Positions 2,433 to 62,480 are shown, counted from the first letter of the whole stretch. The stretch: DNA of 63,841 bases, filler included, from Reclinomonas americana ATCC 50394 (GCA_048213135.1; 5 parts of 4 records of this genome joined end to end with filler, not necessarily neighbours in it), one strand, 5' to 3'. Notes: generated by a model not told the origin, from the letters alone. Program-made: numbers and translations.

Positions 2433-5400
2433 TTATCTGTCGGCTGCGGCCGACGACGACGACGACGACGCTGGCGGTCTCAGGTACTCGGCCAGATCGA
2501 CAGCCATGTTTGTCACGTTGCGCTGCAGCACACGCAAGAAGCCGCGCGATGCCGGCGGCACAATGCCCAGGGCGCGGCAAGCCGCCACGGCTGCCTCCGA
2601 CATCTCCGCCGATGATGACGATGCTGGCGCCGGTAGTGGTGGTGGTGCTGCTGCAGTCGACGAGGTGCCAGACACTGATGATGGTGGTGGTGGTTGCGAC
2701 GGTGCGGTGGCCGACAACTGGCGCAGAATCTCCAGCAACTCGTCGCCTTGCTGCAAGAAGTGGTACTGAATGATATCGGTGACGTCGCGTAGTCGCTGTG
2801 TGCGGGGAGAGTGAGTGTCACATGCACGCCTCATCTACGCAAGGAGTAGGCGGTACATACCGCAGCCAGCTCCAGCGACCTCCGCCGGTGTTGGAACATG
2901 AGCAGCACGACGCCCTCGTTGTACAGTTTCGCGTGATGCGCACCCTCATCTGTTCCGCGATACTTTTCGTATCCGGCCTCGTTGTAGTACGGTTCACCGT
3001 TCAGTACCAGGCCCTGGATGGAGACCAGGAGCTGCAGTAGGGTGCTGGCCGGCGTCCAACACTCACTTTCGTCCTTGGAGAACCACGTGCCGAGCAAGCT
3101 CACTGTCGCACACATCACGTGAGTTGAGTTGGGGGATAGGAAGGGAGAGTGAATGGAAGTGAGTGGGGACGAACAACAAACGGTGCCGTCCGTGTACATG
3201 TTCGGGTTGACTTTCTCCGAGTTCACACTGTGATACTTGACTCGAGGCGGACTCTGCGGGTAATCACCGGGCACCGCAATGTCGAACACAAAAATGCCGC
3301 CAAAGTACCTGCACATCGACAAGGTGAGTGTGGCCAGAGCGACTGCACACATGCACACTGTGTGCGCTCACGCAACGGCGTGCCTCGCGGACCAATCATG
3401 GCCGCGCGCAGCAGATCCAATCGTGACTCGAACAGTCGCACGTACACACCACCTGCCGTGAAAAATCGCCCGTGAGCAGCCAGACAGACAGCATCACATC
3501 GCACGTGTGGTAGCACGCAACTCGGCAAATCCGACTGCAGCGACGTCAAGTCCTGCTGTAGCCGGCGCATCGTGCTCGACGAGAACTCCTACCAGAGATA
3601 CTTGTCGATCAGCAACGACACGCAAATCGCCGCACACACCCACAAACACGAAAAGGGACGCACTGCTGGAGGATCCTGTGCAAACAGGTGGTCCACAGGG
3701 GCATCGTCCAGCATCTCAAATGTCGGCATCGATTCGCTGCAAAAAAAAATCGCCGAGTAAGGATCAACTGTGTTTCATCGAGTTGCAACAAGGCAAGAGA
3801 CACACCCTCTCGCTTGCATCTCTCGCAAGCGCGCCATGCTGGTGGCCAAAAACTGCAAGACACTCAGATGCTCAGTAACATCCAATCGCCACATCACAAC
3901 GCCACACCAACGGCTCACCTCCTGCACTGCGGCCTCCTGTGCGGTGCGCACAGCAGGAGCAGCAGCGGCGGCGGCGGCAGGCACGACACCACCACCCGGA
4001 GGCACGGACACGAGTTGACCGGCTGGCAGTGGGAACGCCGGCGCAACAGCAGAAGCTGCCGGCTGACCAGCGATTCCCTCCACGAGTCGATCGGCAGGCG
4101 CATGCAGTGCACGCAGCAACGAGTCTTCGTAGAACGGGTTGCCGCCGCGTTGCACTTGCAGAAGCGCAGCCGCTGCAGGACCTGCATGACCAAGTTCATC
4201 ATATCAGCGACAGATGAAAAACACAACACAATAACAAGGAACTTGATGGCAATGGTCACCTTGCTCCTGCTGCAGTGCATCTTCGATTTCCTCCGACATC
4301 TCTCCCTCCGACTGTTCGTCTTGCGGCGACAGCACAATGCACTCGAACGGAAGAATCTTGGATCTTGTGCCGTCCGACCATATCACGTCCAGCTTGCCGT
4401 TCTCCAGACCCACCACTTCACCCGTCCACTGCCCAGGGGGCGCTGGAGCTCCATTCGCCCCCTCGCCAGCAGCCACTTCTTCGGGCTCCGCAGCAGCATC
4501 TCCATCCCCTTCGCCGACCGCCGCAGGCTCGCCAGCCGGAGCGCCTGGCGGTGGAGCTGCTGGTTGTGCGCTTGAATCCAACTTCAGCACAATGTCTCCG
4601 AGACGAATCTGCGGCGGCGTTCACGTCAGTGAACTCACTCACTCATCGCACACACACATGTGCGAGAACAGACCTCATGATCGGCTGACGCCTCAATGTC
4701 GTACACGGACACGGTATCCACAGGTCCATCCGAGTCGTACGTCAAGCTGCGGCATCAATGAGCACCGCTACCACCACCATCACTTATATCTGCACTGATC
4801 CATCATACTCACGTGTCGGTTCGCGCATCGCGATTGTACCACCGCACATTGGCGGTACGATCGGCTGGATCCACGCTGAGAACGAAACCACACTGGCCAG
4901 CTGCGACCAAGATGGGGGTGAGGCAACCAGCACACAACTGGTGTGCAGAGTGGAACGCACGTTGGGCGCCTGGTGCATCGGGATGGCACATGACGAGATC
5001 ACCAGGGAAGAAGTCCAGATCCGCCACATCCAGCACCGGGCACAAGTCGATCGCACGGATTCCTCTGCACATCAGTCAGCGACCCAACACCAACATCAAC
5101 AGAAGAGTGCGGCGTCGACGCCTCACCGCTCCAGTGCGCCATCCTGCCACACCACATCGACCACAGTGTGCGTCATGGTTACCAGCACACAGCGCTTCAC
5201 CTGATCCTTGACGGCCGGCCACGAGAGCGGAACGTTAGCCGAGGATGCCGACGCGCCGGAACCGTCTGACCCTGAGCCACTTGCACCGTTCTTCTCCTCG
5301 TCGGCAGGAAACGAATTCTGCACCACGGGCGACGCAGCGCGCACCACACGCTCCATCACTCGACATCTGTGTTTCAGCACATCGCTCGAGGCCTTGGCCC

Positions 5401-7209: not shown

Positions 7210-7399
7210 GTGAAGATGTCGCACGCACGCGCGTGGACGACTTGTGCATCAAAGGAGAGAGAGTGTGTGTGTGTGTGCATGTGCGTGTGTGGTGCTGCCG
7301 TGAACACAGCGTGGGGGTGATGTGAGGAGAGGAAGCAGAGGATGAGTTGCGCCACTTGTCCACTGCGACAATGTGTCTTGTGTGCGTTTCGATGATTGC

Positions 7400-10280: not shown

Positions 10281-12998
10281 ATGCGCGTCGTACTTCTTCT
10301 CCTTCTTCCACTACTGCTGCTGCTGTGGCTGGCAGTGTGCATGAGCAGCACGGCAGCTGCTGCGTCTACTGTGCAAGCGGGTGTGGAGTACACCTCGAAT
10401 GGACACGTGCGCCTGGTCATGTTGCCGACCACGCTGGCGCACGGACCCTTTGCGGCCTGGGGCTCCTTCACAGACACGATTGAGAGCAATGGATGGTCGG
10501 TGCTGCAGGTGCACACGAACAGCTCGTTTGCGGATAACTTGCAGGCGTATGCGGCCGGGTACTTGGAGGGTGAGTGAGTGACTTGGTGAATGAACAGTGT
10601 GTGCAGCGTGACTCTCACTCGCGTTACACAGGTGCGCTGACAGTGCAACGTGGATGGGAGTCACTGATCAACACGCGTGGTGGGCACACGGATTACTCTC
10701 GTTGCGTGCATTGATGATGAGATGAGGGTCGAACGAATGCGCTCATCTTCTGATGATGATGGTGGTCAGCTGCCATGGCCAAGTTTGTGGACGACAACCT
10801 GGCGTGGGTGGCGCAGCAGGTGCAGAATAACCCGCGTGATCCGTACTGGCACCAGGCACGTGTGTTTTCTCCGCGCGCACATACACGAAGTTCATCTCTT
10901 GACCTCGCTGTTCCCACAGGTCGGCCTGCTGTATGATCAGTTCGATGGTGTCTTTGATGGGTATGTGTGTGTGCGGTTGATCGTATGTCGACAATACGCT
11001 TGCATTCTCTGACACACGCGAGGGCAGGTACACTGCCATGGCCAAGCCGAACCAGTTGTTCAACCGTGACGTGCTCATGTCGGCAATCTTGCAAGGTCTT
11101 GCTTTCATGCGCCAGCCCGCTCTGCGTGTCGCAGATTGTTCACCCTGTTCGTAGGCGATTTGGATGATCTGTGCCGCGTGTTTGGTTGCACGGGACGCAC
11201 GGCGCACCGCCTGGAGACCACCGGCAACAGCCACTGCAGTGTGCTGATCAAGGTGACGCCGTCGGGTGAACTGCTCTCCGGGCACACCACATGGAGCGGA
11301 TTCGAGAGCATGACACGGTGCGCCTGCTTTGTACGTTCATAATCGAGAGGTGATGCTCAATCTCGAGTGCACTGCGCGCAGCGTGTACAAGATGTACGAC
11401 TTTGCGTACACTCGCGACGGCACGGTCGGCTCGGGCATTGTGCCGGGCCGCCGAGTGGCATTCTCGTCGTACCCAGTGGTGCGTGAATGCATCTTTGTAG
11501 ATCGCCTGCGTGTGCTATCTTGATCACTCGTGTGCGTGGTTGACAGGTGCTCAACTCGGATGACGACTGGTACCAGGTCGCGTACAGATTTCTTGTTGTT
11601 TCTCCGCATGTGTCTGCGTGCCTCTCATTGTCAACCCCTCGATTCAACAGACATCGGCCGGCCTCGTGGTGACCGAGACGACCATCAGTAACAACAATGC
11701 AACTCTGTGGCAGGTGCTGTCTCTCGCTCGTCGGAGGTGCTCCGATGCCATTGAACACGTGCTGACGCGATGATTGCACAGTTCGTGACGCCGCAGACGG
11801 TGCCCGAGTGGGCGCGTGTCATGGTCGCCACTCGCCTCAGCTCTGCGGGCGCCGACTGGGTGTCGACTTTCAGCAAGTTCAACAGCGGGTACGTTTCCTC
11901 GCTTCGGCGCCTGGCACTCGCAGCGCGGAGTCTCACAATTCTCTTGGTGGCAGTTCTTATAATAATGAGTGGATGGTGTTGGACTACAAGCTGTACCAGC
12001 CCGGCAAGGCTCTTGAGCCAGGAACTTTCTGGGTGGCAGAGCAGGTTTGCGCGTGTGCCTCCTGCTGTGACGAGAGAAGCGTGTATTCTCACACGACGTT
12101 GATCACACAGATGCCGGGCATCATTGTCAGCCGCGACATGTGAGCTCGTGCTGTCGTGGGATTTTTATTCAGCAGAACTTCAGTGCAAACTTACGCGCTC
12201 ATCCTTCTCGCCTACAGGACTTCGTGGCTCACGGAGCACTCGTACTGGGCCAGCTACAACCGTCCCTTCTTCCAGGAAATTTTCGACATTAGCAACCAGG
12301 CGGAACTCCTCAACAAGTACGGCGATCACTTTAGCTGGAGCCGCACGGCGCGCGGCGTCATTTTTGCGCAGATCCAGGTCTGGAGCCTCGTCGCACTTCG
12401 TCTTGACCGTCTCGTGGTCATACTCACGAGGTAATGTGTGTGGCGCAGTCGTCGGTGGTCGACGAGGAGTCGTACAAGCGCGTCATTCGCCACAACAAAT
12501 TCCAGTCGGATGCTATTGGCACGCAGGGATGCTCGAATGGCCGCTCGGCCTCCAATGCCATCTCTGAGCGCGGCGACCTCACCGTCACGAGCGCACAGTG
12601 CATTCATGACATTGCACAGCAGGACGAGGCCGGCATCGACGCCAAGTTCACCAGCTACGCCAAGGTGTGCAAAACAAAACAGAGTGCTTGCGGACTTGAG
12701 TGACTTATTCGTGCACGATACCCAGATGGCCAGCGGCACTCTGAGTGCGTGGATCCAAAGCGGACCGACGTACGACGATCAGCCGCCGTTTGTGTGGAGG
12801 TGAGAAAGTGTTGGACAAAAATTATTCATTGTGTTCGATTCTCATTTCAACCACGCAAAAACGCACAGCAAGAGCCCCTTCAGCAGCACCCCGCACGTGG
12901 GTATGCCAGACAAGTGGAATTTCCCGTGGGTGGAGGTGTCATTCCCGCCGACCGAGGACGACACCGAGCCGACGCAGCTGCAGTTCAACGCTGTCTAA
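10281..12998 (+). CDS. Phospholipase B-like (PLBD family) secreted/lysosomal Ntn-hydrolase, about 15 exons
   Basis: Signal peptide; QAYAAGYLEG, DPYWHQ, SHCSVLIK (catalytic Cys), GHTTW, FSSYP, ETT, NSGSYNNEW, YWASYNRPFF, NAISERGDL, GIDAK, SGPTYDDQPPFVW, HVGMPDKWNF. Confidence 0.93.
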
Positions 12999-25073: not shown

Positions 25074-28000
25074 ATGTCTGTCAGCAGCGGCATCGACACC
25101 TGCGTCGACGCTTGCATTCGCGGTGCGTGAGTGTGTGTGGCGACAACTGACGTGAACACTGGTTTTCGCGCGCTCAACACCCGCAATCACTTGCACAGAG
25201 TACCTCAGTCGTCGCAAGTACAAACAGACACTGGCGGCGTTCGACGCAGAGAATGTGCGTCTTTCTTGTTCACTGTGTGTGTGTCTCTCTCTCTCTTTCT
25301 CACAGTGCATCGCAGCCTCGCAACTCCTCGTCGATCTCTTCTCGAGGCGAGCTCGCCAAGCGTCTGTGCATTCAGTCCATCATCAAAGCCAATGAGAAGC
25401 GAGGTCGGCACTACTCTCGCACTCTCGCCGTGTGCCTCAAGCCTCATCGCGCTTGCACAGATCCACCACTGGTCTCCTTCTTGGAGATGATCGTGTGGCA
25501 TTTCATGGAGATTGCCGAGATCAAGAAGGAGAAGAAGCGACCGTCGACGGCGGCGGCTGCGGTGGAGGAGAGCAATGAGCGAGAGGAGGAGGTACGCAAG
25601 CCAGTGCGACCGGCATCGGCGCACGGCAACCGACCGCGCATGCCCGAGAGCGACGGAGCAGCAGCAGAGGCACCGCCGGCTGCTGCGAGCAAGGCTGGAT
25701 CGCTGCAAGTGCCGGCCTGTTTCGTCCACACGCCTTGTTGATGATGTTGGTGGTCACACTCACAAGGCATGTGTGTGCTTGCAGTCTTGTCCAAGCGACC
25801 GACGTCGGCACCGAGTGCGGCCACCAAGGCTGCCGAGCGAGAGGTTTTTTATTTGTAACGATGCTGTCGATGATCGTGTTGTCTCTCCCCACTCACTCGT
25901 GACATATCTTTTGACAGGCGTGTGTCATTGTGAAAAAGACGGGCGAAACCATCTATCGCTACCCCGGTCAGATCCACGGGTGCGCTCGTGCTGCGTTTGC
26001 CGATAACCGCCTCGGAGTTGTCTTCTTATTGTGTTTTGTAGAAATTCAATGGTGCTGGAGGACCTCACCAACTGCACCGTGTGCATCTGCGATCACTGTG
26101 CGCAGATCACGGTCGACAACTGCCACGACTGTCGCATTCTGATTGGCGCCAGCAGCGGCTCTGTCTCCGTGCGCGATACGACTCGCTGCCGATTGTACAT
26201 TTGCTGGTCTGTAATACTCTGTTCTTTCTGTTTCCCCTGCTGGCGCCTCACCACTTTCCTCTGTCGTCGTCATCGCATACAGCAAGCAGTTCCGTACACG
26301 TGGTCTCACCGACTCGGATGTGTGGATCTACTGCAAGACCGATCCGGGAATTGAGGATGCGACCAACCTGCGCTTCGGTCCGTTCAACGCGTTTTATCCA
26401 CGCGCCGACGAACACTTTGACGTTGCGCAGCCCCATCATGCCCCTTCCCCCAACTCCTGCTGATCGTCGCCGCAGGCCGCAAATCTCGAACGCGAGACCG
26501 ATCGTCACGAGTTTGTGTACGATTTCAGTCCGCAAGCCACCCGCGACTTCCCGCTGCCACACTGGCGCGAGATGACGCCCGCCGAGGCCGCTGCCGAGTG
26601 GATCATTGAGCTCCCGGAACCACCGGCCGGCTCGCCAGTGAAGCCGGAGAACTGGGGACCCCCCGTGCATCCCGTCGACCCGCAACGTCGTCCAACTGCA
26701 GTTTCGCGCCAAAATTCCCGTGCGCTGCGGTGAGTCACTCACAGATCCACACGCGCTCATGTCACGCCCGAGAATAACGCGCGAGACTGTGTACTGGTCT
26801 GCCTGAGGGAGAGAGAGAGCGCGCGCTGGGAGAAGAAGAAGGGAGGTGAAGAAAGTGCTGACTGTGTGTGTGATCAGGGAGGATGATCCGACGCCGCCCA
26901 CTCGATCCAGTGCATTCGGTGCTTCCTCATCTGCTGGCTCATCTTCTGCACCACGTGGAGCAGCAGCAGCAGGTGGAGGAGGAGGAGGAGGACGCGGTCT
27001 CTTTGCAGACACTGCAAGTGCTGTGCCATCATCTCTGCGCAAAGGTGATTGGATGCACGCAGATGCGCGTTGTCTCTCCCTCCTTCTGTGTTGCTCACTC
27101 TGCACATGTGTATACACACAGGTGACAGCGATGACGAGGATGATGGGCCACCGGCTGTGTTCCGCCGACCTTCGGCTGCTGCGGGTGGACGCAAGTCATC
27201 GTTGCGCATCTCTCTTTCCCTCTTGTCTCGTCCCTCATTGACACTGCGGTTACAGTCATGGAGCGGTCGATGCCGACGAGACTCCCATGAAGGTCAACGA
27301 AGTGATGGAGGAGGAGGATTTGGACGACGAGTTGGAGGAGTTGGATCGTTGCGTCTGTCCCTTTCCTCATCCTTCCTCACCCATGGGCTGACGCGGCGAG
27401 CAGGCGTGTCGCGTCCGGCTGGTGGAGCACGAAGCAGTGCCGGCGGTGCTGGACCGTCGACTGGCCCGCGCACTGTCAATATGCAGCGTGCGGAGCAGTT
27501 GACACCCGCTGTCAGCCGTCAACTTCGCTTGTTGCGTGGCGTGGGCGCCTGTGCTGTCGATGCCACGTTCCTGACCTGCCGCGTGCGTATATGTTTTTTC
27601 CGCGCGTAGGTTGCTGCTGGGTGAGCGGCTGTTGACGCCAGACTCGTGGCTGCAACAAGGATTGTTTTTCGAGACCAAGCAGGGCCTGCATTTTGGATTG
27701 GTCCAGAACAACGTGAGTGACGACGATGTGCATGGGGACTCTGTTGGAAGGCTGTCAACTCAGTACATGTGTGCCACCGCAGGGCGGCCCGTGTGGCGTG
27801 CTGGCGTGCATCAACGCGTACATTGTTTATTACATTTTGTTTGTGGAGCGTCGTGGCAACAGGTGTGATCGTATATGCTCTTGTCCTCTTCCACGCCCAC
27901 GAGACACTGAATGCGTTTCTATCGCACCCTGCAGTTTCCCGCAAGTGGCGGAGCACATGCAACGATCGGCTTTGGTTTATGCCATCACCGAGGTCATTTG

Positions 28001-30364: not shown

Positions 30365-30464
30365 NNNNNNNNNNNNNNNNNNNNNNNNNNNNNNNNNNNN
30401 NNNNNNNNTTAATTAATTAANNNNNNNNNNNNNNNNNNNNNNNNNNNNNNNNNNNNNNNNNNNN
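30365..30464. other. Artificial scaffold spacer (N44-TTAATTAATTAA-N44)
   Basis: All-frame stop linker at 30409-30420 inside N runs; the same linker occurs at 56562, 59799 and 62568. Confidence 0.95.
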
Positions 30465-32803: not shown

Positions 32804-35265
<2,462 letters not shown>

Positions 35266-36488: not shown

Positions 36489-39146
36489 ATGGAGGAGGCC
36501 GACAAGCTGCTGAGCGCCGAGCAGCGTCCGGGTGGTGTGGTGACTGCCGTGCACTTCATCACACGCGATGCATCAGCCGCGTTGCCGGCGACAGATGATG
36601 GTGTTTTGCACGTGCACATGCACATCACCAACCTTGACACACTCACACAAGCGCGTGTGTGTAGGCATTGGAATGGTGGCGCGACTGGTGAAGCAGGCGC
36701 GGTATGCAAGTGGAGACAGTGGCAAGTCGGCGGCGCTGCATGCACTGGCGCAGATGCTTCCGCGACTGCCGGCGGTGCATGTGGCCGCGTGTGTCGAGTC
36801 CCTCGTGCAGCTCATCATGCAGACCATTCAGCGTGCGGGAGAGCCGTCTGTTGCAGCCATGGCCGCTGCATGTGCGCTCTTCTCCACGGTCAATCACTGG
36901 CAGCGCGTGGGCGGGCCCAGTGAGCCCCGACGAATGCTCGTGGATATGACGGCAAAGATCGTCTCCAAGTTGCGGGCCCCGCTTCCCGCGCGTATGGCTT
37001 ACACTGCTGCTCATGCGTATATGCAGAGCGATTACTGCAGCTGCAGGGGCGCCAGATGTGCAGCTGGCGACGCTGGCGCTGATTCAGCATGCGGGCGAGG
37101 AGTTTGGGACGGTGTTGCGACCGCAGACGCAGCGGATTGTGGAGTTTGCGCAGCCGTTGATGTTCTCGGCGGAGGCGGTGTTGCGCGAGCGTGCGGCCGA
37201 GTGTTTGGCGTTGAGTGTGCGCATTGCGCCGGCCAATGAGCAGCGCAAGAGCATCATGCAGGCGGCGCTGGATTCGTTCGAGTCGGCCGTCTCGGTGCTG
37301 ACCAAGATGGTGGATCCGAGCTTCTCTTGCACTGCGGCCATGCTCAAACTCGATCCAGTGATTCTCGGTGCGTGTTGCACGTGGACCATACAGGAGGAAG
37401 CAAGCAGGCACTCACTCGCACCGCTGCAGATGGCGGATCGGCGATGCTCGCCAACCAGCTGGACAGCCTGGCGTGCCTGCTCTCTCGTCTCTTTTGCATT
37501 CCGGAAATGGCCATTCCGGCGGTGCGAGTGATTCGCCTGGCGGAGGCGGCCGCCGGTCTGGATCTGTCGTGTCGGGTGGTGACGGGCCGACAGGCGATTG
37601 ATTTGCCGCTGCCGACCTCGGCGTACGCGCTGCTTGTACCGTCGGTTCATTTGTGTGCGCTGCGTGTGGTGGTGTCGCTGGTACGCCAATGTCAGCGACA
37701 GCTGGCCCCTCTGTGCAAGCGCCTCATGGATGTGCTGGTGCGCGAGCTGGAGACGTGGGACGCAGTGTCGCAGTTGAGTCGCACCACCTGTCACTCGCCC
37801 GTGTTGTCCATGTCGGTGACATTTGTGTGTGCAGTGTCGAGCTGCGTTGCGAGGTGTACGGAGCGCTGTCGCTGATGGCGTCGTTGTTTGGATCGACGGT
37901 GACGAAGCAGCTGGTCAGCCGTGTGCTGCCCAGCATCGATCGGGATGTGTCTGCGGTTGCGTCACGGGTCAAGGGTCCTCGTCACCCAAATCGTGTGTCT
38001 GACGCGCACACGCAGATCGTGGCGCAAATGAGCAAGCAGGCAGGTGACAGTGGCGGTGCGACGCCGTTCCGCGTGTTCGAGGCCCGAAATGCGTGCTGTG
38101 TGGCGGCACTGGGCTGTTGCGTCTTTCTGTTGCAGCTCTCCCCCTTCCCCACCTTCTCGTGAGCTCACAGCTCGCTGCAGGTCTCGACAGCATTGTGGTC
38201 GCCTGTCCGCACGTGTTCCTCGAGGCCACAAGTTCCAGTGTGCTCGCACACTTGTTGACTCTGGTGCAGACGGTGCGACTGGCGCGGCATGCGGCGATGC
38301 ACGGCTGTGTGGTGGAGCCGGCGTACCGCAGTCTGGCTCGCACGTGCCTGCTCACCGGCGTCGCCAGTTTGCAGTACTTGCATCAGGCGGTGGCCGTGCT
38401 GCGCGAGGGTCTGACCAGTCGCCATGTGGAGGTGAGTGATGGTGGCAAGGGTCGAGAGATTTACTTGTCGCCGACCGCATGAGTACCACCAGATTGTGCG
38501 CGAGTGCCAGCAGGGTGTCGCCATTGTCGGGGCCATGCTGCAGCCGCGCGGCGCACCCCGCAGTGTGGTCGACCGGCCACCCATGCCGTCGCGCCCCGCG
38601 TTTCCCACCACCGTGACCGCGGCGGCCCCACCACCCTCATTGTCATTGTCATCATCGTCGTCGGCAGCAGCAGCGCCGGCATTGAGCTCTTACGTGCCTC
38701 GACAGCCGTCGACCTTTGGCAGCGCGTCGCGCATCACTCCGGCGGCCACCCGCAAACGACCGCTGGAGCCTGAGCGACCAGAGGACAGTGGAGCGGCGAG
38801 TGGCAGTCAGTCTGTCGCCAATGGTGTCGCCGCAGGGGAGAATGGCGACGACGACGATGACGATGTGGTGGCGGAACCCGACGCCAAGAGACCAGTTCCG
38901 TCGGTGGCTAGCGAGGTGGTGGCTCGAGTGGAACGGGCCCTGGCATCGTTCAGCCAGCAGCCACCTCCTCCTGCACCATCGGCACCTTCAGCTGCTGCCT
39001 CGTTTGCCAGCCAAGTGGACGCAGCGCACGCCTCTTCTCATCACGACGACGGCGACGAGGGCATGGGCATGATGGTCGTCGATGCGCCACCGGACGACGA
39101 CGACCTGGAGGATGACGACGATGAAGACGAGGATGAAGAAGAATAA
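36489..39146 (+). CDS. PELP1/RIX1-like HEAT-repeat ribosome biogenesis factor
   Basis: Helical Leu-rich exons, LLVPSVHLCALRVVVSLV, LRCEVYGAL, CCVAAL, terminal LQPRGAP, then a Pro/acidic tail as in PELP1. Confidence 0.65.
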
Positions 39147-44089: not shown

Positions 44090-46266
44090 TCACTCCTCGT
44101 GGCGCTCCAGTGCCGGCATCCACTGCAGCAGCTGCGCCAGCGCCGGGGCGCCGTATCGCATGCGTCCCTCTGCCAGGCGGCGATATCGGCTGGCTTCGCT
44201 CACGGCTTTGAGCAGGTGGCGCACGTGCCTCCACTGGAACCGGCTGCCCAGCATCGACGTCTGGCTGTGGTACGCAAACAGCAGGCACTCCATGGCGGCG
44301 GCGGAACCCTGTTTCGCAGTGAGCCAACTGGTATTTCTCTTGAATATTTTTTCTCCTTTGCACGCAACGTCGTCCACAATGGCCGTGTGATACGTTGCGG
44401 CTCGCATCTCCAGCAGGTGGACCTCGGCGCCGACCTGCAGCCACCCGTACATGCGCTCCTTGGCCACATCCCTGGCGGATATCTGCAGCCGACTGATGCG
44501 AGCCTGTAGCGCCTGCGCCATGTGCGCCAGCAGCTTGGCGCGATCGGCTTGCACCGTCGCCATCGGGGAGCCACTCGGCAGCACTTCACCCAGCAGTACC
44601 GAATACAGCGGCCCGCCCTTGAGTCGCAGTTTCAGGTCAATATCGGGCCGCGTAGACGACAACTGAGCATCGCCGGTCGCGGCCCCACCAATACTGACGT
44701 GCACGTGCTCGGCCAAGGAAGCAGAGGCACAGCCGCGATAGGCATACAAGTTGGCCTGTGGTGCATGCCACGTTGGTCTTTTTCCACACAAATATGTACT
44801 GGTGCATGAAGCAGTTTCGATACCTTGCCAATGGCGGTGGCCAGCGAGACAATCGAGTGCGTTGTGTGCACTTGCAACTGCGTGTCGGACGAGGCAACCA
44901 CTGGCACGAAAATGTCGGAGCACACGAGGGTGTTGAAGGCCCAGCGGGCGAATGCGGGAAACGGCAGCAGTGGCACATCGGAGGACATGAATTCCAGGTG
45001 CCAGTTGCCGAGTTCACCCGCTTCGCGTGTCTCTCCACTCGAGCTCGCGTCCGCAGAAATGGATGAACTCGATAGGGTTGCTGGTGGCAAGGACGCTGAC
45101 GGTGGTGCTGGTGATGGTGGTGGCTGCTGCTGCATGCGCAGCGAGTCGACCTCGCCGACGACGGTACTGTGGCCGGTGCCACTGGTGGAACGAAGTTCGT
45201 TGAATGCCGCCAGCGCCAGCAGCATCTCGCTCAGTGGTCGATGAGTCTCTGCACTCGAGCTCACCTCCGCAGAAGCGGATGAATTCGAAAGGGTTGTTGC
45301 TGGTGGCAAGGATGCTGGTACCGGTGGTGGTGCTGGCTGCTGCAGCGAGTCGATCTCACGAACGAATGTGCGGTGGCCGGTGGCAGAGCGAAGTTCGTTG
45401 ACTGCCGCCAACAGCAGCTCGCTGGTGGTGACACAAAGGGAGGTGAGGGCGCGTGCTTGCCAGCTTTCACAAATGCAAACGCTGCGCACGCAACTCAAAG
45501 TCCACTTCGTCGCCCCTGGCACGCGAGAGAGACAGTGAGTCAAATTCACATTGCGACCAACACGCATGCCTCACACCTTTCAAAGAGGCGCTTCCAGTTG
45601 CGCAGCAATGGATCACTGTCCACATCCCACCCGCCGTCGCCGAACACGGTGCTGCAGTGAACTCGCCCGCTCACGCAGCCAATGCCGGCCTCGTACAACA
45701 ACTCTTGCGTCGAATGCAGACCGAGAAACTCGTCCAACGCCACTGGTGCCTCCAGTGCTGCTGTTTGCTCGGCATCAGATGATAAGCAGTGGGCACACCA
45801 ACACAGAGCTCACGCAACACAGGTAGTCCTCCTCAGAGACAGTCTCCAAGTTGCGCGGCGCGACTTCCACACGCATGTCGTGATCACCGTCGTCGACATA
45901 CGCACGCGGTGCGTGCACGTGGGCGGGCGTCACCGACACGGCATAGTCTCCGTCGTCACCATCGTCGCCATCAATGCCTTCGTGTTCCATTGGCGCCGGA
46001 ACACGATGACCACCCTTCACTTGCGCATGCGCCTGGCGTGGATTCGATGCGTGCATGTGCTGCGCATGCGCAGTCACCGGCGCTGCTGCACGCTGTCGCT
46101 TCCGTGGCGGCCGGTGCTGTGGCAACTCAGCCTCCGCCACCGCAGCCTGTCGCTTGGTGCCTTTTCCCATTGTATCGGAAACTGTTGGAAAGAGCGGGAG
46201 GCCAGTCGATTTGATGAAGCAGTGAAAGCTGGCCAGTACTTTGTCAACCTTGCGAGAAGCAGTCAT
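44090..46266 (-). CDS. Hypothetical protein with C-terminal restriction-endonuclease-like (Crinkler-type) domain and an internal duplication
   Basis: RPDIDL..VLLGEV..DRAKLLAHMAQAL..YGWLQVG.EVHLLEM; long exons; 5' structure approximate. Confidence 0.55.
45020..45420 (-). repeat. Intragenic coding duplication, two units of about 200 bp
   Basis: LLLAAVNELRSATGH..REIDSL..SLPPATTLSNSSASAEVSSSAET versus LLALAAFNELRSTSGTGH..GEVDSL..SLPPATLSSSSISADASSSGET. Confidence 0.85.
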
Positions 46267-48566: not shown

Positions 48567-49732
48567 TCACCGTCGACCGCCGACCACTCCTACCAACACA
48601 TAACTCGTCACGATACCGATGCCCTTGACTGCACAGCACACGAAACACCGAGTCAGATAAAACAACACACATGCTCCCTCCCCTGTTCCTCGCCTCACCT
48701 TCGACACTCGCTGCCTCCACCTCAAACACTCCACGCGTCTTGCGATGTGTCGACTGCCAAAAAACAACGAGTGTCAACAGCGAACGATGACAACTCATAC
48801 CGTCGCGGACGCTCACCTCACTCAGTTGAATCATGCCGAACGGCGCCGAGCTCTCCATCCGAGACGCCATGTTCACGGAATCTGTGTGGACACAGAGACG
48901 GGTCAATCAAACGCTCGCTGATCAACAGTGGTCTCTCCCTTTCCCCCACCCTCACTCACTCACCGCCATATAAGTCGAACGTGCGAATCAGACCCGCAAC
49001 AATCCCCGATGTCACTGGCCCCGTGTTCACACCAATGCGGAACTTGATCTCCACTTGCCGCTGTGCGACACAGACAGACTCGTTACAAACCACACCATAC
49101 GCAACAAACAGCATGTCGACCACACAAACGCAACTCGCTGGCACAACTCCAAGATTGCCTGCTTCGCAGCCATTGTAAATTCCACCACGGCCGTCGCGTG
49201 ATCGTGTCGTGGCAAGTACATGCCCGACACGGCAAGATAGGCCGAGCCTGTAGCGGCGATAAGCTGACGATAACACACTTTAGCCCCTTGACCTCACTCA
49301 CCAATGGTCTTCACGCGCTCAATGTTGTGCTGCTTCACCAGCCGGTCGAATGCACCAAGCAGCTGGTGCAGCACTTCAATCTTCTCCAGCAGCGAAACGT
49401 TAACCTTGCCGTCACCACCCGCCGCAGCCGCTCCTGTACTCTCGTCGTGTTCAGCAGCAGCAGCAGCAGAGATAATTCCCTCTTCACACTCACCTGCACT
49501 GCCGGCCGCGTGTTGCACCGACAACACCTTGATGAACGTGCACGTCACCTCCGGGTGGAACTCAAACATAGTCGGCGGTGTTTCAGTCTCGTCCAACGAC
49601 GCCTGCGTCGAGTTATTCAGCGTGGTGACAAAGCTGCGCTGCGTCACGCGACTTCATCTCACCGTGTCCAGCAAGTTCTGAGCACTGCCAAACGACTGTG
49701 CCGTCAGCCTCTCCAGCGCTGCGCGCGGGAAC
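48567..49732 (-). CDS. Class III adenylyl cyclase, C-terminal catalytic domain (5'-partial)
   Basis: FDRLVKQHNIERVKTIGSAY, FRIGVNTGPVTSGIV, TFDLYGDSVNMASRMES, IQLSE, VKGIGIVTSY. Confidence 0.9.
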
Positions 49733-50648: not shown

Positions 50649-51849
50649 ATGATGAACGCAGCATCTGCTTCGGCGTCACACATGAACCAGTCGCACACCC
50701 AACGACACCGACGACGACGACGACGACGACAACGCAGCGGCACTGCGAAGGATGATTCTCACTCATCAACGACCGCGACACCCACTTCTCACCCCGAGAG
50801 TGCCACTGCGCCGAAGGAGACTGCATTGCTCAGTTCATCAGCGGCAGCTGGCAGCCGTGCGACCTCCCGCAGACGGCGTGCAACTCCCCACTATCGTGTG
50901 CCTCGCGGATCTGGGGTCGATGATGAGGAAGTGATGCGTCGCCTGCAACACTGGCTCGAGACAGACGGCCGGGCAACCGAGCAACAGGCGGATCACACGT
51001 TTGTTGTGCGGCGGACCACGATTGGTGCGTTTGTGTGCTGTGTGAAGATCATCGTGGTGTGGCAGTCACTTTTTGTTTACACAAGTGGCCTCTCTCTCTC
51101 TCCCTCTCTCTCGCTGCACAGGCAAGCCACCGCCGTTGAAGAAGTGGCGACAAAAGTGGCCGGAGGCTGTCGCGCAGAATGGCGGCCGTGCAGTGGATCC
51201 ACGCGAGGTGTTGCGAGGCAGCCGGTGTGCGGAGATGGATGGGCAGATGTTGATCGCACTTGAGAAGGAGTACGTCACCGGCGTGATCGAGCCGCAACAG
51301 TTTTCAGCCGGTCTCTGTCACCTGCAACAGTCGCTGGCCAAGTGCGTTGTCGACGGCACTGCGGTGTCTGTGGAGACTGTGCCTCTTCTGCGTGTGCTGC
51401 CGAGGAAGAGACGCGACCCGCATCGAGAACGAGTGTGTCTGCGAGTGTGGGTGGGGCCAGCGGCGGATCGAGTCGCTGTGTGTGAGACGATTCTGGCGGC
51501 TCGGCAACCGGATGGTGTGTTGTGGATGGTGCTATGCTGTCCACCGGAGGATGCGGTGTTCTATGGCTTGCCGAGCTACAAGCCGCGCAAGTTGAGAATT
51601 GAATGGGCCGCACCGGAATGGGCCATTACCGAGTACAACGTCGACAACTTCGACTTTGACAACTTCCTGGCAGATCCCTCTATCGGCGCGACATACGATC
51701 CAGCCTTATTCGGCTCCAAACGTTTTCCAGACGCCCAGACGATATCTGCAGACGTGAAGAGCGCTCATCTGCACGAGCTCATCTGCACGGACTCTGGCGT
51801 CGCCGACGGCGTTGGCGCGGAATGTGCATGTGGGCGCTTGCATGACTGA
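50649..51849 (+). CDS. Orphan tandem-family protein, copy 1 (2 exons)
   Basis: Exon 1 ends RRTTI, GTGCGT..CAG intron, exon 2 GKPPPLKKWRQKW...RLHD stop; highly similar to 54657-56088. Confidence 0.7.
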
Positions 51850-52236
51850 TCGATCTCTCTCGGATTGTCGGCACTCCATCACGACTTGAGGAGGTGTGTT
51901 CAGGCAAGTGAAACTGTTTGTGTCTCTTGAGTGTTTGGAGAAGATTGCACGTTTCTCGCTGCTGCAGATGCATGTGCTTGGTGCATGTGCTTGGTCGTAC
52001 ATGTGTTTGCATTGCTGTTGATATTTATGTGTTGCTCTGCGCGCAGCTCACATTTGACTGCCCTGCAGGTCACGGTGGTGCGCATGTTCGCATGCTGAGT
52101 TGACCGAAAGGAGTGCGCGGTAATGCATGGAAGCAAGCATTGCGTACAATAGGTATCACTTGCAATTGGTGGTTCATAGTTATCGCAAATTTCATTCCCA
52201 ACGTTTAGTGAGAAAGAATATTACTGGCAAGTCAGA

Positions 52237-54656: not shown

Positions 54657-56088
54657 ATGAGCGCACCTCTTCCCGCTGTGTCACGCATTCATGGACCGCG
54701 CAGACGACGACAGAGCAGTGCGGATGCCGATGAGGAGGACTTTTCTTCCAGCGCAATGTCGCCATCAACAGCCACGACACTCACCTCTCTCCCCGAGAGT
54801 GCCACTGCGCCGAAGGAGACTGCATTGCTCAGTTCATCAGCGGCAGCTGGCAGCCGTGCGACCTCCCGCAGACGGCGTGCAACGCCCCACTTTCGTGTGC
54901 CTCGCGGATCTGGGGTCGATGATGAGGAAGTGATGTGTCGCCTGCAACACTGGCTCGAGGCAGACGGCCGGGCCACCGAGCAACAGGCGGATCACACTTT
55001 CGTTGTGCGGCGGACCACGATTGGTGCGTTTGTGTGTTGTGTGATGATCATCGTGGTGTGGCAGTCACTTTTTTGTTTACACAAGTGGCTCTCTCTCTCT
55101 CTCTCTNNNNNNNNNNNNNNNNNNNNNNNNNNNNNNNNNNNNNNNNNNNNNNNNNNNNNNNNNNNNNNNNNNNNNNNNNNNNNNNNNNNNNNNNNNNNNN
55201 NNNNNNNNNNNNNNNNNNNNNNNNNNNNNNNNNNNNNNNNNNNNNNNNNNNNNNNNNNNNNNNNNNNNNNNNNNNNNNNNNNNNNNNNNNNNNNNNNNNN
55301 NNNNNNNNNNNNNNNNNNNNNNNNNNNNNNNNNNTCTCTCTCTCTCTCTCTCTCTTTCTCGCTGCACAGGCAAGCCACCGCCGTTGAAGAAGTGGCGACA
55401 AAAGTGGCCAGTGGCGGTCGCGCAGAATGGCGGCCGTGCAGTGGATCCCCGTGAGTTGTTGCGAGGCAGCCGGTGTGGGGAGATGGATGGGCAGATGTTG
55501 ATCGCACTTGCCAAGGAGCGAATCACCGGCGTGATTGAGCCAGAACAGTTTTCAGCCGCCCTCTGTCACCTGCAACAGTCGCTGGCCAAGTGCGTGGTCG
55601 ACGGCACTGCGGTCTCTGTGGAGACTGTGCCTCTTCTGCGTGTGCTGCCGAGGAAGAGAGGCGACCCATATCGAGAACGAGTGTGTCTTCGAGTGTGGGT
55701 GGGGCCAGCGGCGGATCGAGTCGCTGTGTGTGAGACGATTGTGGCGGCCACTCCGCCTGAGGGTGTGTCGTGGATGGTGCTGTGCTGTCCGCCGGAGGAT
55801 GCGGTGTTCTATGGCTTGCCGAGCTACAAGCCGCGCAAGTTGACGATTGAATGGGCCGCACCAGAATGGGTCATCGACGCGTATGACTTCGACAACATCG
55901 ACTTTGACAAGTTGTTGGCGGCTCTCTCCGTCGGCGCGACATACGATCCAACCTTCTTCGACTGCGAACCATCGACAGACGCCCAGCTGCTAGCTGCAGA
56001 CGTGAAGAGCGCTCAGCTGTGTAAGGTCCTCTGCGATTCTGGCGTCGCCGATGGCGCTGGCGCGGAATGTGGGCGCTCGCGTGACTGA
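54657..56088 (+). CDS. Orphan tandem-family protein, copy 2
   Basis: Same exon/intron structure as copy 1 and near-identical core sequence (PESATAPKETALL..., LCCPPEDAVFYGLPSYKPRKL). Confidence 0.7.
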
Positions 56089-56517: not shown

Positions 56518-56718
56518 NNNNNNNNNNNNNNNNNNNNNNNNNNNNNNNNNNNNNNNNNNNNTTAATTAATTAANNNNNNNNNNNNNNNNNNNNNNNNNNN
56601 NNNNNNNNNNNNNNNNNAGAGAGAGAGAGAGAGAGTCTAAGAGTGGGAGGAGGCTATCTTCTCAGCCCCTTGCTCTTATCCTTCTCCTTCCCTGGCTGAG
56701 AGACCTCTCTTCACGCAG

Positions 56719-58295
56719 AGCGCGAGTCCGCACTCTCGAAGACGAGGTGAGGGACGGTGCGAATCTCGCGCTTCTCGCCGGTCGACAGGGTGGCGGCGCA
56801 GGCACCACACAACAGCTCGACCGGCTGCGTGAGGCGCGCGAAGAGGCCTCGAGTTTGCGCGATCGCTTCGAGTCATCGCAGAGTGAGTGGGACGCCGAGC
56901 GAGAGCAACTCGAGAAGATGATTGAGGTGCGCTGACGCCCATCGCGCCACCAAGAATCATCACGTTGTTTCTCATCACCACTCTATGTGGCCAGCGGTTG
57001 GACGAGCGTGTGCGGGCGAGTGAGACGCAGAATGATGAGTTGCGACTGGAGCTCGATCTAAGACCCTCGGTCACCGAGTGGCGAGCGCTGCAAGAACGCT
57101 ACGGCACACTCAAGCAGCAGCACCGCGAACTGAAAATCAAGTTGCGCCACCCTGCCTTCCATCGTTAGTTCGCCGCTCCCTCCTCACACTTGGGTGCCGG
57201 GGCAGATTCGAAGGCGAGTTGAGTGTATCACCGCCGTCTGCACTCGAGAATTCACACTCGGCGGCACGCGATGCAATCGCTCGCGACAAGGATGTTCACC
57301 GACTGGGACTGCGCAAGAAACTGGACGAGACACCGGCATCCACGTGTCGCCAGATCCTGCAAGACTCCCTCAGACTACTCAAGGTCACCGAGCCGGATTT
57401 GCTGCCGGCCGCGGTCAAGAAGCTGAACCAGGTGGTGAGCGCCGTTCCTCGTATCCAGCAGGTACGCAGGCCATTTCTTTCTCGCGCGCCTGTTTGCTGT
57501 CTGTCACTCACCGATGATTGTTCTTGCGTGTAGTACGTCCGCGATGTGTGCACGCTCTGCAGCACCATGTTGGAGGTACCGCCGGCCAACGATTTGTCTC
57601 CCGCTGACTCACTGGCCGTGCTGCGCAACTCCTCGGTCAACCTGCAGGAGCTGCGCTCGCTGCGCAAATTCGCCGATCTCGTCGTGTCGGTGCTTCGCTC
57701 GCGAGACACGTCGCAGACACCGCAGGCACACGACGGCATGACACATGCTGCTGTGATCTCGATGTTGCGTGATTTGATTGAGCACGAGAAAGCGTGGCTG
57801 GCCAGTGAGGCCGCTTTCCAGGCAGCGCGTGAGCAACTACGAGTTGCGTGATGTTTTCAACGTGAGCTGGCGAGAGACGGACACTGACCTTGGAGTGGCT
57901 TTCGGTGCAGGATCAACCGCAGGGCGTGCTACAAAAGCTGGTCGCGCACTTCCAGACGCTCTTCGATGTGCCCGAGTTGCAAGGCGTGTTGCCAAAGATG
58001 AACGAGGTGCGTTGCTTGTGCACGGACTTGTGCCTCCCTCATGTGCCTCGCAATAGCTCATCCACACCATCCAGTTGTACCTGTTTGTCAACGAATCGCT
58101 GAATCACATGCGCGCTTTGCGCTCCATGCTCGGCGTGGGTGCGTTGTGGTATTCTGCTCCATATCGTTGTCGATGTTGTTGCTGGCATTAATCCTCTCAA
58201 GCGCAGATGGAATGGCGTCGTTCCGTGACTGCTTGGAGACGCTGCGTCATGTGGTGGATCACAGGTTTCGACAAAACATGGGACTCGATCCGTGA
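56719..58295 (+). CDS. CEP70-like centrosomal coiled-coil protein (5'-partial)
   Basis: [50 protein letters not shown], matching the CEP70-type C-terminal pattern. Confidence 0.7.
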
Positions 58296-58547
58296 CACGC
58301 GCGCAGTACAGCGCTTTTCTTTTTTTAGGCCACACATGTCTCTCCGACACGGTTCATTAACTGCACACGGTTCTAGTACGAGATTTCTACTGCAAACAAT
58401 TAACAGGCCGTCACCATTATCGACACCCGCTCGACAAGAGCAGGCGACGAAACAACGGCCACGGCGGTCTGTTGCGACGCAAAACACACATTTCCCCCCT
58501 TACTCCTACAACACTCTATCTCTCTCTCCCTTCTCCTCCATTCCTCT

Positions 58548-59694: not shown

Positions 59695-59959
59695 TGCGTG
59701 TGCGAGGGTAAGAAGAGAGAGAGAGAGAGAGAGAGGAAGCAGGGAGAGAGAGAGNNNNNNNNNNNNNNNNNNNNNNNNNNNNNNNNNNNNNNNNNNNNTT
59801 AATTAATTAANNNNNNNNNNNNNNNNNNNNNNNNNNNNNNNNNNNNNNNNNNNNGTTGGAGGCGATGCCGAGGCGGTAGGCTTCCTCGGCCACGGCCTGT
59901 GTGAGCAGTGTGTGAGCCACGTGCACACCATGCAAGGGTTATCTTCTTTGCAAACGCAA

Positions 59960-62480
59960 CAATGCCGACACGCAGACCGGCCTCGCGCATGCGTGCAACG
60001 CGCGGACCCACACAGCCGCTCGCCAAATCCTCATCCGTAACCATCTGCGTGCTGCGTGGTGAGCATTGATATTTACGAAACACAGAGACAAGACAGGCGC
60101 GCAACGTTGGCCACTGCGCGCGCTGACGCCAGGAAGAGCTCGTCGGGGATGTGGCTGGCGCCGGAAACCATGACGCCCAGACCAATGCCTGTGGCACGCA
60201 GAGTGTGAGCGCGGCTTTGAAAGGCAGATGAATTGTGCAAGCTACGTGCGCTCACCAGGATACACCATGGCGTTGTTCGCCTGCGCAGTGCGAATCACGC
60301 GGCCCTTGTACACCACGGGGTCAAACGGCGAACCAGAGGCATACAGGCAACGGCCGTCGGTGTGCTCAATCGCTGCGGGGTGGGTGATGAGAATCAGGAA
60401 GGAAAGAGAGAGAGAGCGAGAGAGAGAGAGAGCAACAGAGAGCGTCAGAGAGCAACAGCGAGCGCCAGAGAGCAACAGCGAGCGCCAGAGAGCAACAGCG
60501 AGCGTCAGAGAGCAACAGCGAGCGTCAGAGAGCAACAGCGAGCGTCAGAGAGCAATAGGGAGCGTCAGAGAGCAACAGCGAGCGTCAGAGAGCAACAGCG
60601 AGCGTCAGAGAGCAACAGCGAGCGTCAGAGAGCAACGGCGAGCGTGAGAGAGCACCAGCAAGCGAGAGAGAAAGAGGAACAACAAGCGAGCGAGAGAGAG
60701 AGAGAGAGTATGAGCGATGCACACAACACACCATCCTTGGCCGTGCACTCGGCATACGAGGTCGGATTGGACAGAGCGAAGATCAGCGGGCGCTTCTGCA
60801 TCTGCGCCATCTCCTTCAGCACCTCCGGCGGGAACGAACCCGGCTGGCCAGACACTGCGACGAAAGAATAAGACACCGGCATGTCACAGGAACAGAGGCG
60901 AGACAGTGGATGAAACCTCCAATCAAGGCCGTCGGCTTGAACGAGCGGATAATCTCCAAAAAGTTCTCCGTCGGAGGGTGATCCTGTGGCACGAACACGA
61001 TGAGTTGACACAGAGAAGAAAGGAAGACAATAAAAAAACACAGAAAAAACCTGCGCAAACGCCAACTTGTGTTCCTGCAAGTCCTTGCGCGACTTGACCA
61101 CCAGGCCCTGTAACCACAAGCGTCAGCACCGCACCCATCTCCTTCCCTTACTGAAAGGCCACTGCACCTTGCTGTCGCGGAACCAGCAGCGTTTGCGAGC
61201 CTCGGCCTCCGTCATGCCGCAGTCTTGCATCAGAAGCTGCACCAGCAGCTCGCCAATACCCGTGCCTGCCTCGCCGGCACCCAAGAAGAGGAAGCGCTGA
61301 TCGGCGAGCGGCATCTTGGTCTCACGCACGGCGGCAATGAGGCACGCCACGGTGATGGCAGCCGTGCCCTGGATGTCGTCGTTGAACTGCGGATGCAGGA
61401 AGTGAGCGACAGAGTGATTACGCACTGCGGGCAAATGCATGCACCGTGGGGTAAAGAGCGCGGTAGCGGTTGAGCAGCACAAAGGCGTTGTGATTGCCAA
61501 AGTCCTCGAACTGCAAAGAAGGGAAAGTGAGTTAGCACAGTTGTTATCCTTACGCACTTTCTTTTCCTCCTCCCTCACATATCACTCATACACTTGCTGA
61601 CTCGCTCACTACTCAATCTCTCTTTCTCTCACACAAACTAACACAAAGACGCATGCACACACACAAACACACAAACACAAAGGGAAAACAAATGCATTCA
61701 CTTGCACACTCAGCAAACTTGCACACACTCACTCACTCACTCACTCACTCACTCACTCACTCACTCACTCACTCACTCACTCACTCACTCACTTACTCAC
61801 TCACACACACACACACTCACTGTTTCTCGCTCTCTCTCTCTCTCTCTCTCTATCACATACCTGCAGCACCACTCGCGGGTACCGGCGGTAAATCTCGCGC
61901 ACCACCTCGTCCACAAAACTGTAGTACGGTTCTCCCTTGATGCGGCGCTGCTTCAGGCCGTGGTAGTGGCCGCTCGACAAGAATTCCTCATTGTTCTGCG
62001 AGGCGAGTGTGTCAGCCACTGTATACAAACACGGGGAGTCAGCACATCTCGCGCACCGTGCCCACATCCAGCGTAATCTGGCGACAAGAAGCACGAGTGA
62101 GACTTGGAAAGCAACAAAAGAGAAGTCAATATCCAGTGAACCACCCACCGGCAGACACTGCTTCGGGTGGAAGCCGGCGCCGAGAGTGTAGAGGCTGAGC
62201 TTTCCGACGGGAATGCCCATGCCGTGCGCACCGAGATCGCCGAGACCGAGAATGCGCTCGCCGTCAGTCATCACAATCTGGCGACGTCGTGAGAGCAAGC
62301 AAACAATAAGAGCATCATTGTGCCGTTCAACGCACCACGCGAACATCGTCGCTGGGCCAGTTGGCAATAATCTCTCGCACGCGACCACGGTAGTTGGCGG
62401 AAATCCACAAGCCGTGCGGCTTGGGGTACACCAGGTGCATGTTGCGGCAACCGTCGCCCACCGTTGGTGTGTACACAACT
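59960..62480 (-). CDS. Malic enzyme (NAD(P)-dependent malate dehydrogenase, decarboxylating), partial
   Basis: [80 protein letters not shown]. Confidence 0.95.
60428..60652 (+). repeat. 20-bp intronic minisatellite, about 11 copies
   Basis: gagagcaacagcgagcg(t/c)ca tandem units inside a malic enzyme intron. Confidence 0.92.

Follow-up and report, generated by a model that had tools for sequence, protein, structure and literature searches.

Gene content of the window and gene models

The stretch of DNA analysed here (the window, 63,841 bases, about 58% G+C outside 17 runs of N that hold 3,245 N in total) is eukaryotic and gene-dense, and its genes are split by many short introns. Per-exon Pfam searches together with gene models named genes for a 2-oxoacid dehydrogenase E1-beta, a UBE2O-like E2, a phospholipase-B-like protein, a kinesin, Rpn6/PSMD11, a region with TBCC and MINDY-3/4 domains, an RRM protein, OLA1/YchF, FIGNL1, a cyclophilin, a small GTPase, an actin-family protein, a cyclase-domain protein and malic enzyme. 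The subject of this work is a class of introns in these genes whose 5' splice site (5'ss, or donor) begins with GTTGCG. The local canonical donors follow the pattern G/GTG(C/A/T)G(T/C), in which the first G is the last base of the exon (exon -1). A preliminary description had listed 23 GTTGCG sites and two related forms, GTTGAGT at 37773 (+) and GTTACGT at 20699 (-), and all 25 are present on the strands and at the coordinates claimed for them.

Three gene models were used. Because circularity was to be avoided, donor information was left out of the first, a donor-blind gene finder that combined coding potential, GT/GC...AG boundaries, intron composition (first bases excluded) and an acceptor matrix with zero donor information. 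The other two used a single donor matrix, which penalises GTTGCG, and a donor matrix conditioned on position +3, which is aware of the class. The curated list of introns is the +3-conditioned set from which four predicted introns were dropped, given here by strand and donor position with their lengths in nucleotides (nt): +10570 (200 nt), +18253, -59960 (267 nt) and -30061 (42 nt). Corrected forms were restored for +10570 (63 nt), -59960 (64 nt) and -30061 (60 nt), +18253 was swapped for +18278, and five donors were added (+10701, -60105, -60255, -3521 and -3376). Pfam was run exon by exon with stop-free references (150 of the 151 exons of at least 20 amino acids, aa). In the junction test, single exons were matched separately and it was then asked whether the matches abut; in the junction scan, all GT/GC-AG combinations were scored against 10 homologues.

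GTTGCG is the commonest donor hexamer of the window

Gene models and predicted proteins together show that GTTGCG(T/C) forms the 5' end of real, short GT-AG spliceosomal introns and that, in these predictions, it is the commonest donor hexamer of the window, used by about one intron in six. Counted on both strands, the window holds 84 copies of GTTGCG, where 100 dinucleotide shuffles gave 61.7 ± 7.6, and 34 copies of GTTGCGT, where they gave 14.3 ± 3.8; neither count was reached in any of the 100 shuffles. Twenty-eight of the 84 copies are inferred donors, which locates the excess at intron starts, and the other 56 lie at about background density in exons (20 sense, 15 antisense), between genes (10) and inside introns (6 sense, 5 antisense).

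The donor-blind gene finder had GTTGCG as its commonest donor hexamer, at 14 of 134 introns. The single-donor-matrix model gave 15 of 128 and missed 14 of the 25 sites listed before, and the +3-conditioned model gave 24 of 147 and recovered 21 of them, the remaining four (+10701, -3376, -3521 and -60105) being regained by hand or by homology. Five additional GTTGCG donors were found at +36969, -45818, +57141, -59960 and -63022. GTTGCG also accounts for 12 of the 86 introns that are identical in the donor-blind and class-aware runs, and for 3 of the 20 junctions in two homologue-checked genes. In the curated set 28 of 151 introns begin with GTTGCG. The proposal of the preliminary description that GTTGCG is a major class of real donors thus holds in the window, at about 14-19% of introns depending on the model, and the observed number is far above the 1.1 predicted by independent position frequencies.

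Judged by their signals, the GTTGCG introns are ordinary major-class (U2-type GT-AG) introns with an unusual 5' end. All 28 start with GT and end with AG, and their acceptors are GCAG in 15, ACAG in 10 and TCAG, GTAG and ATAG in one each, which are the types found in the other introns. They are 54-80 nt long, with a median of 65 against 68 for other short introns, and none of the 28 exceeds 90 nt, compared with 32 of the 123 other introns (p = 7e-4). A CTRAY motif stands near the 3' end in 11 of the 28, against a mean of 2.9 and a maximum of 10 in 200 shuffles, and in 20 of 91 other short introns; YTNAY is found in 27 of the 28 and in 81 of the 91. When the 28 introns were inspected side by side, with no formal clustering, nothing common was seen beyond the donor and the generic branch and acceptor signals. 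Ordinary acceptors and branch motifs, the lack of a common sequence and the lack of minor-class signals argue that the class is neither an introner family nor U12-type. U12-type introns were rejected on the grounds that the 5' motif is unrelated to the minor-class consensus and that no U12 signal (RTATCCT or RTATCCTT-type donor, TCCTTAAC-type branch box) was found at any class member.

Placement of the junctions

For eight junctions (13820, 14174, 18707, 33901, 3376, 36079, 60105 and 59960) the placement was tested residue by residue with Pfam profiles, solved structures or homologues, and all eight fit the GT donor; the remaining 20 of the 28 are reading-frame models only. The preliminary description had considered the in-frame GC three bases downstream (GC+3) to be excluded, and this alternative does fit worse at each of the three junctions where it was scored. 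The GTTGCG donor came first in all three junction scans, with the GC+3 donor about 10 units lower (malic enzyme, 103.8 against 93.4 at 60105 and 75.1 against 65.0 at 59960; Rpn6, 120.1 against 109.2 at 18707). Protein searches gave no near-identical sequence: the best matches reached 57-71% identity with malic enzyme and about 55-67% with Rpn6, whose top named matches come from animals, Mucoromycota, Amoebozoa and plants. Intron phases 0, 1 and 2 are represented by 9, 8 and 11 of the GTTGCG introns, and a motif that stands in all three phases is not a conserved codon GTT. In 25 of the 28, the reading frame would not survive retention of the intron.

GC-AG introns are found in the window as well. 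The cyclophilin gene has one at 35806-35867 (-), with the donor GCGCGT after an exon -1 G and exons that abut at Pfam Pro_isomerase 106/107, and other predicted GC donors read GCGAGT and GCACGT. The GC donors of the window look like canonical donors with C at +2.

The best-placed class members lie in conserved protein domains. The GTTGCGT intron at 3309-3376 (-, 68 nt) interrupts the UBC domain of the UBE2O-like gene at the GT/P/Y junction, where the flanking exons leave one residue for the split codon (68/69/70 of PDB UBE2O 9mcb_B and 666/667/668 of 9quf_A) and Pfam UQ_con begins at profile position 42 on the downstream exon. In the same domain, the GTTGCGT intron at 3453-3521 (-, 69 nt) was placed by frame reconstruction; its downstream exon corresponds from its first residue to 9quf_A 643, and a PDB search with the upstream exon, which is too short, gave no match. 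The kinesin gene has two GTTGCGT introns. One, at 13820-13884 (+, 65 nt), lies in the P-loop, with Pfam Kinesin 85 before it, 86 as the split codon and 87 opening the next exon. The other, at 14174-14242 (+, 69 nt), lies in the motor domain, where Pfam Kinesin is continuous from 156 to 160 and the donor-blind model selects the site. When metagenomes were scanned with the kinesin exon, the only matches were two distant relatives (39% and 44% identity). The GTTGCGC intron at 18707-18777 (+, 71 nt) in the PCI domain of Rpn6/PSMD11 is fixed by Pfam PCI 58/59/60 and by the junction scan. In FIGNL1, the GTTGCGT intron at 33901-33959 (+, 59 nt) follows residue 86 of human 3d8b_A, splits codon 87 and is followed by an exon that starts at 88. 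In the cyclophilin gene, the GTTGCGT intron at 36021-36079 (-, 59 nt) stands between a 15-aa upstream exon aligned to residues 66-80 and a downstream exon that starts at 81 (6lxp_A, 1ihg_A). A second one, at 36323-36381 (-, 59 nt, GTTGCGT), belongs to the N-terminus and comes from the gene model; it presumably fits cyclophilin N-termini. Malic enzyme contributes the newly added GTTGCGT intron at 59897-59960 (-, 64 nt), across which tblastn residue numbering is continuous, and the GTTGCGC intron at 60045-60105 (-, 61 nt), with tblastn residue 490 at 60106 and 492 at 60041; both were also placed by the junction scan.

The remaining members were placed by gene models, by frame reconstruction or by hand, and five of the nine short hand-made exons have no Pfam match. 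The GTTGCGT intron at 10701-10769 (+, 69 nt) in the phospholipase-B-like gene is a hand model. Pfam Phospholip_B 39-68 is unmatched between its flanking exons, which fits a missed 22-aa exon that ends at the donor, and this exon has no Pfam match on its own. Gene models alone place three sites of the PH-like-domain gene, namely the GTTGCGT introns at 19288-19348 (-, 61 nt) and 19935-19999 (-, 65 nt, where read-through meets a stop) and the related form GTTACGT at 20632-20699 (-, 68 nt). In the RRM gene, the GTTGCGT intron at 30002-30061 (-, 60 nt) was placed by frame reconstruction; a second in-frame acceptor gives 42 nt, the 60-nt form has a typical intron length, and the choice of its acceptor follows the protein spacing that we take to be expected from RBM18. 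The GTTGCGC intron at 30163-30227 (-, 65 nt) follows the 10-codon first exon of the same gene and comes from frame reconstruction only. The GTTGCGT intron at 30967-31046 (-, 80 nt) in the OLA1/YchF-like gene comes from gene models; its downstream exon aligns to OLA1 structures, and a PDB search with the upstream exon gave no match.

Five GTTGCG introns lie within 25253-29101 (+). The first (26422-26475, GTTGCGC, 54 nt), in the TBCC-domain gene, comes from gene models, and read-through meets a stop; Pfam TBCC stops at profile position 101 on the upstream exon, and the downstream exon is unmatched. A homologue search with the exon 26476-26685 found nothing. It is followed by 27201-27255 (GTTGCGC, 55 nt) and 27348-27403 (GTTGCGT, 56 nt), from gene models only, by 27531-27609 (GTTGCGT, 79 nt), from the class-aware gene model only, and by 28046-28123 (GTTGCGT, 78 nt) in the MINDY-3/4 domain region, from gene models with flanking exons that have no Pfam match of their own. 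The stretch carries TBCC (exons 26043-26421) and a MINDY-3/4 deubiquitinase domain (exons 27783-29098) on the same strand with no clear gene boundary in the models, and it is either a fusion gene or two tightly packed genes.

Elsewhere, the newly added GTTGCGG intron at 36969-37026 (+, 58 nt) comes from gene models only and is the weakest class member, because its +7 base is G, and the related form GTTGAGT at 37773-37834 (+, 62 nt) likewise comes from gene models only. The GTTGCGT intron at 38116-38180 (+, 65 nt) is found by the class-aware model only, the donor-blind model having taken the GT at 38121, and that at 57843-57910 (+, 68 nt) is also found by the class-aware gene model only. Gene models further give GTTGCGT at 45761-45818 (-, 58 nt, newly added), GTTGCGT at 49061-49134 (-, 74 nt) in the cyclase-domain gene and GTTGCGC at 57141-57205 (+, 65 nt, newly added), and they are the only source for GTTGCGT at 62954-63022 (-, 69 nt, newly added).

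The exon side, the +7 base and the GCG core

The class differs from the canonical donors on the exon side. The preliminary description had counted G at exon -1 in 3 of its 23 sites, which is correct, and the count becomes 3 of 28 with the five added sites. Among strong canonical donors it is 49 of 59 (Fisher p = 8e-11), so the anti-correlation between the class and -1 G is borne out, and among all non-class donors it is 92 of 123 (p = 3e-10). In the donor-blind run the counts are 3 of 14 for the class and 26 of 32 for canonical donors (p = 2e-4), and in the two homology-checked genes they are 0 of 3 for GTTGCG and 16 of 17 for the others. These two contrasts indicate that the -1 G difference is independent of the fitted donor matrices.

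In malic enzyme (59897-62335, -) the canonical donors can be very degenerate (GTTTTT, GTTTCA, GTGGTT, GTGCAG), yet nine of the nine homology-checked ones follow an exon-final G. Outside the GTTGCG class, G at exon -1 seems to be nearly obligatory.

On the intron side, position +7 of the class (T 21, C 6 and G 1, n = 28) resembles position +6 of canonical donors (T 47 and C 12, n = 59). When positions +7 to +10 of the class were scored, the log-likelihood was -134.5 with the class slid by one base relative to the canonical donors and -152.0 without the slide, that is 17.5 nats better when slid. For the exon flank the values were -118.4 and -150.7, which is 32 nats better when slid. GTTGCGT equals the canonical 7-mer GGTGCGT with the second base changed, and both are cut just 5' of their first GT: the canonical 7-mer is cut after its first G and GTTGCGT before it.

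The slid form is nearly restricted to one core, the three bases that follow GT in canonical donors and GTT in slid-type donors. Canonical and slid-type donors number 27 and 28 for the core GCG, 18 and 2 for GAG, 12 and 1 for GTG, 5 and 1 for ACG, and 3 and 0 for each of AAG, ATG and GGG, so that GCG makes up 28 of the 32 slid-type donors compared with 27 of the 71 canonical ones (Fisher p = 2e-6). Strong canonical donors have G at +3 in 51 of 59 and C at +4 in 31 of 59. The earlier picture of common donors with one extra T is right in that the class looks like G/GTGCGT one base over, and it has to be narrowed in that the extra T goes with nearly the GCG core alone (28 against 4).

Other features of the window

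A search of the whole window with Rfam gave no match at gathering thresholds, and at E <= 1 it gave 13 weak matches, none of them to a small nuclear RNA (snRNA) and most of them to microRNA models at 740-950. This is a low-complexity stretch beside a 20-N gap with sub-threshold microRNA-model matches on both strands, and the matches are most likely composition noise. Paired 44-base runs of N exactly 12 bases apart occur at four places (30365-30464, 56518-56617, 59755-59854 and 62524-62623), some of which interrupt genes (OLA1, malic enzyme); the other N gaps are irregular, from 20 to 914 N. The regular pairs look like a masking or scaffolding convention, not ordinary gaps. The neighbouring genes at 50934-52057 (+) and 54933-56067 (+) encode clearly similar proteins of about 260 aa and look like a local tandem duplication; for their main exons no Pfam family and only sub-threshold Atlas matches were found. 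The closest named matches of malic enzyme (59800-63100, -) are bacterial, of Verrucomicrobia type, with 66-71% identity over one exon, and the only protist among the named matches stands at 66%. The gene has at least 11 spliceosomal introns, and it may be an old bacterial-type gene or simply strongly conserved.

Discussion

We consider it probable, although far from certain, that GTTGCGT is read by the same recogniser as G/GTGCGT, in a seven-base frame slid by one base. The recogniser, presumably the 5' end of U1 snRNA, would bind GTTGCGT in the frame used for G/GTGCGT; the first G of the intron would fill the slot of the exon's final G, the duplex would carry a single internal mismatch, and cleavage would take place at the sole available GU, one base upstream of the usual place. 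This would be the shifted register of rare human sites put to routine use. If U1 is slid in this way, G is expected to be lost from exon -1, because the intron +1 G fills the slot that normally pairs with exon -1. The restriction to GCG can be read in two ways, either as a mismatched slid duplex that is viable only with the best-pairing core or as the mark of a dedicated snRNA variant. Under the slid frame, we propose that, since the duplex is already mismatched, only the best-pairing core is tolerated, and only in short introns. If GCG is the best core, we speculate that the textbook sequence does not hold here for U1 positions 5-6 or for another reader of +3/+4.

Several points weigh against the slid frame. 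The textbook U1 5' end pairs GUUGCGU poorly in every register, and it would favour slid sites with an A-containing core, like those of the human examples. At the +4-equivalent position of textbook U1, A pairs and C does not, and GCG is therefore not expected as the preferred slid core. A model with no exon constraint accounts for the exon flank as well as the slide does (-118.3 against -118.4); on these data a register with -1 pairing is excluded, and the slide is not proven. The sample is one 64-kb window, its junctions are deduced from proteins and reading frames, and 20 of the 28 are predictions of gene models made for this analysis. Some long introns and odd donors among the others in the curated set are probably model errors, which would inflate n and could affect the length contrast.

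The closest rival is a bulged register, in which U1 would keep its normal frame, one U of +2/+3 would be flipped out and GCGU would pair as canonical +3 to +6. Such a duplex has more base pairs than the slid one, it predicts that the class has at +7 the T of canonical +6 equally well, and the +2/+3 bulge has been validated in human cells according to Tan et al. (2016, PMC4856993). However, exon -1 would face the same U1 base as in canonical donors, and G at this position is found in 83% of the canonical donors and 11% of the class. A bulged duplex is no stronger than that of canonical GTGCGT and should need -1 G at least as much, and a plain +2/+3 bulge, which keeps exon -1 pairing, does not predict the loss. 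We regard the bulge as unlikely, and of the earlier suggestion that a shifted or bulged register has become a major mode, it is the shifted half that fits the -1 G loss, the +7 pattern being predicted by both. A changed 5'ss-reading RNA appears quite unlikely too. One form would be a U1 5' end with G-C in place of the two pseudouridines of nearly all eukaryotes, so that its positions 5-6 complement GC; the other would be a second U1, changed at position 8 and complementary to the whole of GUUGCGU, and in this case the GTTGCGT introns would be a separate snRNA-defined class beside the canonical one. The class is indeed far more uniform than the canonical donors, with its one core dominating the slid-type sites, the canonical preference for +3 G and +4 C is not favoured by textbook U1, and an unconstrained exon flank is what wholly intronic pairing would give. 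But the U1 5' end is nearly invariant across eukaryotes, GC-rich genomes with normal U1 likewise show G/C at +3/+4, and a fully complementary U1 leaves the stricter exclusion of other cores unexplained.

The other explanations concern the introns themselves, and we give each of them very little weight. That the true donor is the in-frame GC (GTT/GCGT), or that both sites are used as a GYNGYN tandem, might be suggested by the fit of GTTGCG to the GYNGYN motif, as described by Hiller et al. (2006, PMC1779574), and by the GC-AG introns of the window, such as cyclophilin GCGCGT. An extra residue would, however, disrupt the spacing of the kinesin P-loop, the PDB and Pfam numbering leaves no room for it at any of the eight checked junctions, about 10 alignment units are lost at each of the three scored ones, and the invariant GTT stands in all three phases. 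GC+3 as the donor, which we consider very improbable, was rejected on residue numbering and junction-scan scores, and minor alternative use of it may occur. An introner, that is, copies of a mobile intron-generating element ending in GTTGCGT, would account for many copies of an identical 6-7-base 5' end, for the narrow size range and for the absence of an exon-side requirement, but the 28 introns have no recognisable similarity beyond the donor and generic signals, and their lengths are those of other short introns. It was rejected for want of extended similarity among the 28 copies and is just as improbable as the downstream GC. Chance or a gene-modelling artefact has the smallest probability of all. 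Twenty of the 28 members do come from ab initio models, and the class-aware model reinforces itself, but the donor-blind model already ranks GTTGCG first, the homology tests agree in eight of eight cases, and the number of donors equals the window-wide excess over shuffles. Chance was rejected on the donor-blind rank, the homology tests and the expected count.

Several things would follow if about a sixth of the introns are indeed spliced through a slid or bulged site. Few features of eukaryotic 5'ss are as conserved as the +5 G and the exon -1 G, and until now slid or bulged U1 registers have ranked as rare curiosities of human genes. The class would mean that the register flexibility of the spliceosome can become fixed as a routine mode, and it would offer a natural system for studying how the cleavage site is chosen, at the hand-over from U1 to U6 and U5, when U1 binding is out of step with the GU. 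Gene finders with standard donor models would mis-annotate a sixth of the introns. The strict GCG core also makes a sharp prediction about the U1 5' end.

Shifted-register 5'ss of human genes were reportedly described by Roca and Krainer in 2009, and bulge registers are said to have been described by Roca and colleagues in 2012. Among the papers listed in our literature search, GTTGCG or GTTGCGT, written as DNA or RNA, was not found as a splice site, logos in figures and supplements, where a genome paper may show it, lying beyond a text search, and no lineage-wide shifted register was found, the reports of shifted U1 registers being on human or tunicate genes. According to Tan et al. (2016, PMC4856993), experiments in human cells have established both shifted and +2/+3-bulged U1 registers, and in the whole transcriptome 68 sites are predicted to use the +2/+3 bulge and 51 the +3 bulge. 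Thus, shifted and bulged registers are known as rarities, and what appears to be new here is the routine use of such a register by about a sixth of the introns. The evidence for the donors and for how common they are is good, the register is reasoned from them, and a change of snRNA is speculation.

The GTTGCG donors resemble the human shifted-register sites, as these are presented in PMC4856993, in that GU is followed by an extra base, so that the +5 G stands at +6 and the +6 U at +7, and in that all U1 pairs would be moved by one position with cleavage at the GU. Unlike the human sites, which are rare and have A-rich cores, they make up about 14-19% of introns, form the top donor hexamer and have almost only GCG, and the loss of exon -1 G is a property of the whole class. 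They share with the +2/+3 and +3 bulge registers the pattern of GU, U and core and the same prediction for +7, but bulge registers keep -1 pairing and the GTTGCG class is without -1 G. As in GYNGYN tandem donors (PMC1779574), GT and GC stand three bases apart, but the hexamer is fixed and all eight tests fit the upstream GT. Like U12-type introns, they form a second, uniform 5'ss class without exon-side constraint beside degenerate major-class donors; unlike U12-type introns, they have the acceptors and branch-like motifs of the other introns. Exon-side and intron-side pairing of the 5'ss are known to compensate for each other, as in dependencies of the maximal dependence decomposition (MDD) type and in the "left-handed" and "right-handed" sites defined by LUC7. 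The window resembles these systems in that two groups of donors differ in their use of exon -1 G, but strong canonical donors keep -1 G in 83% of cases, which argues that the GTTGCG class has not lost it simply to compensate for a strong intronic half.

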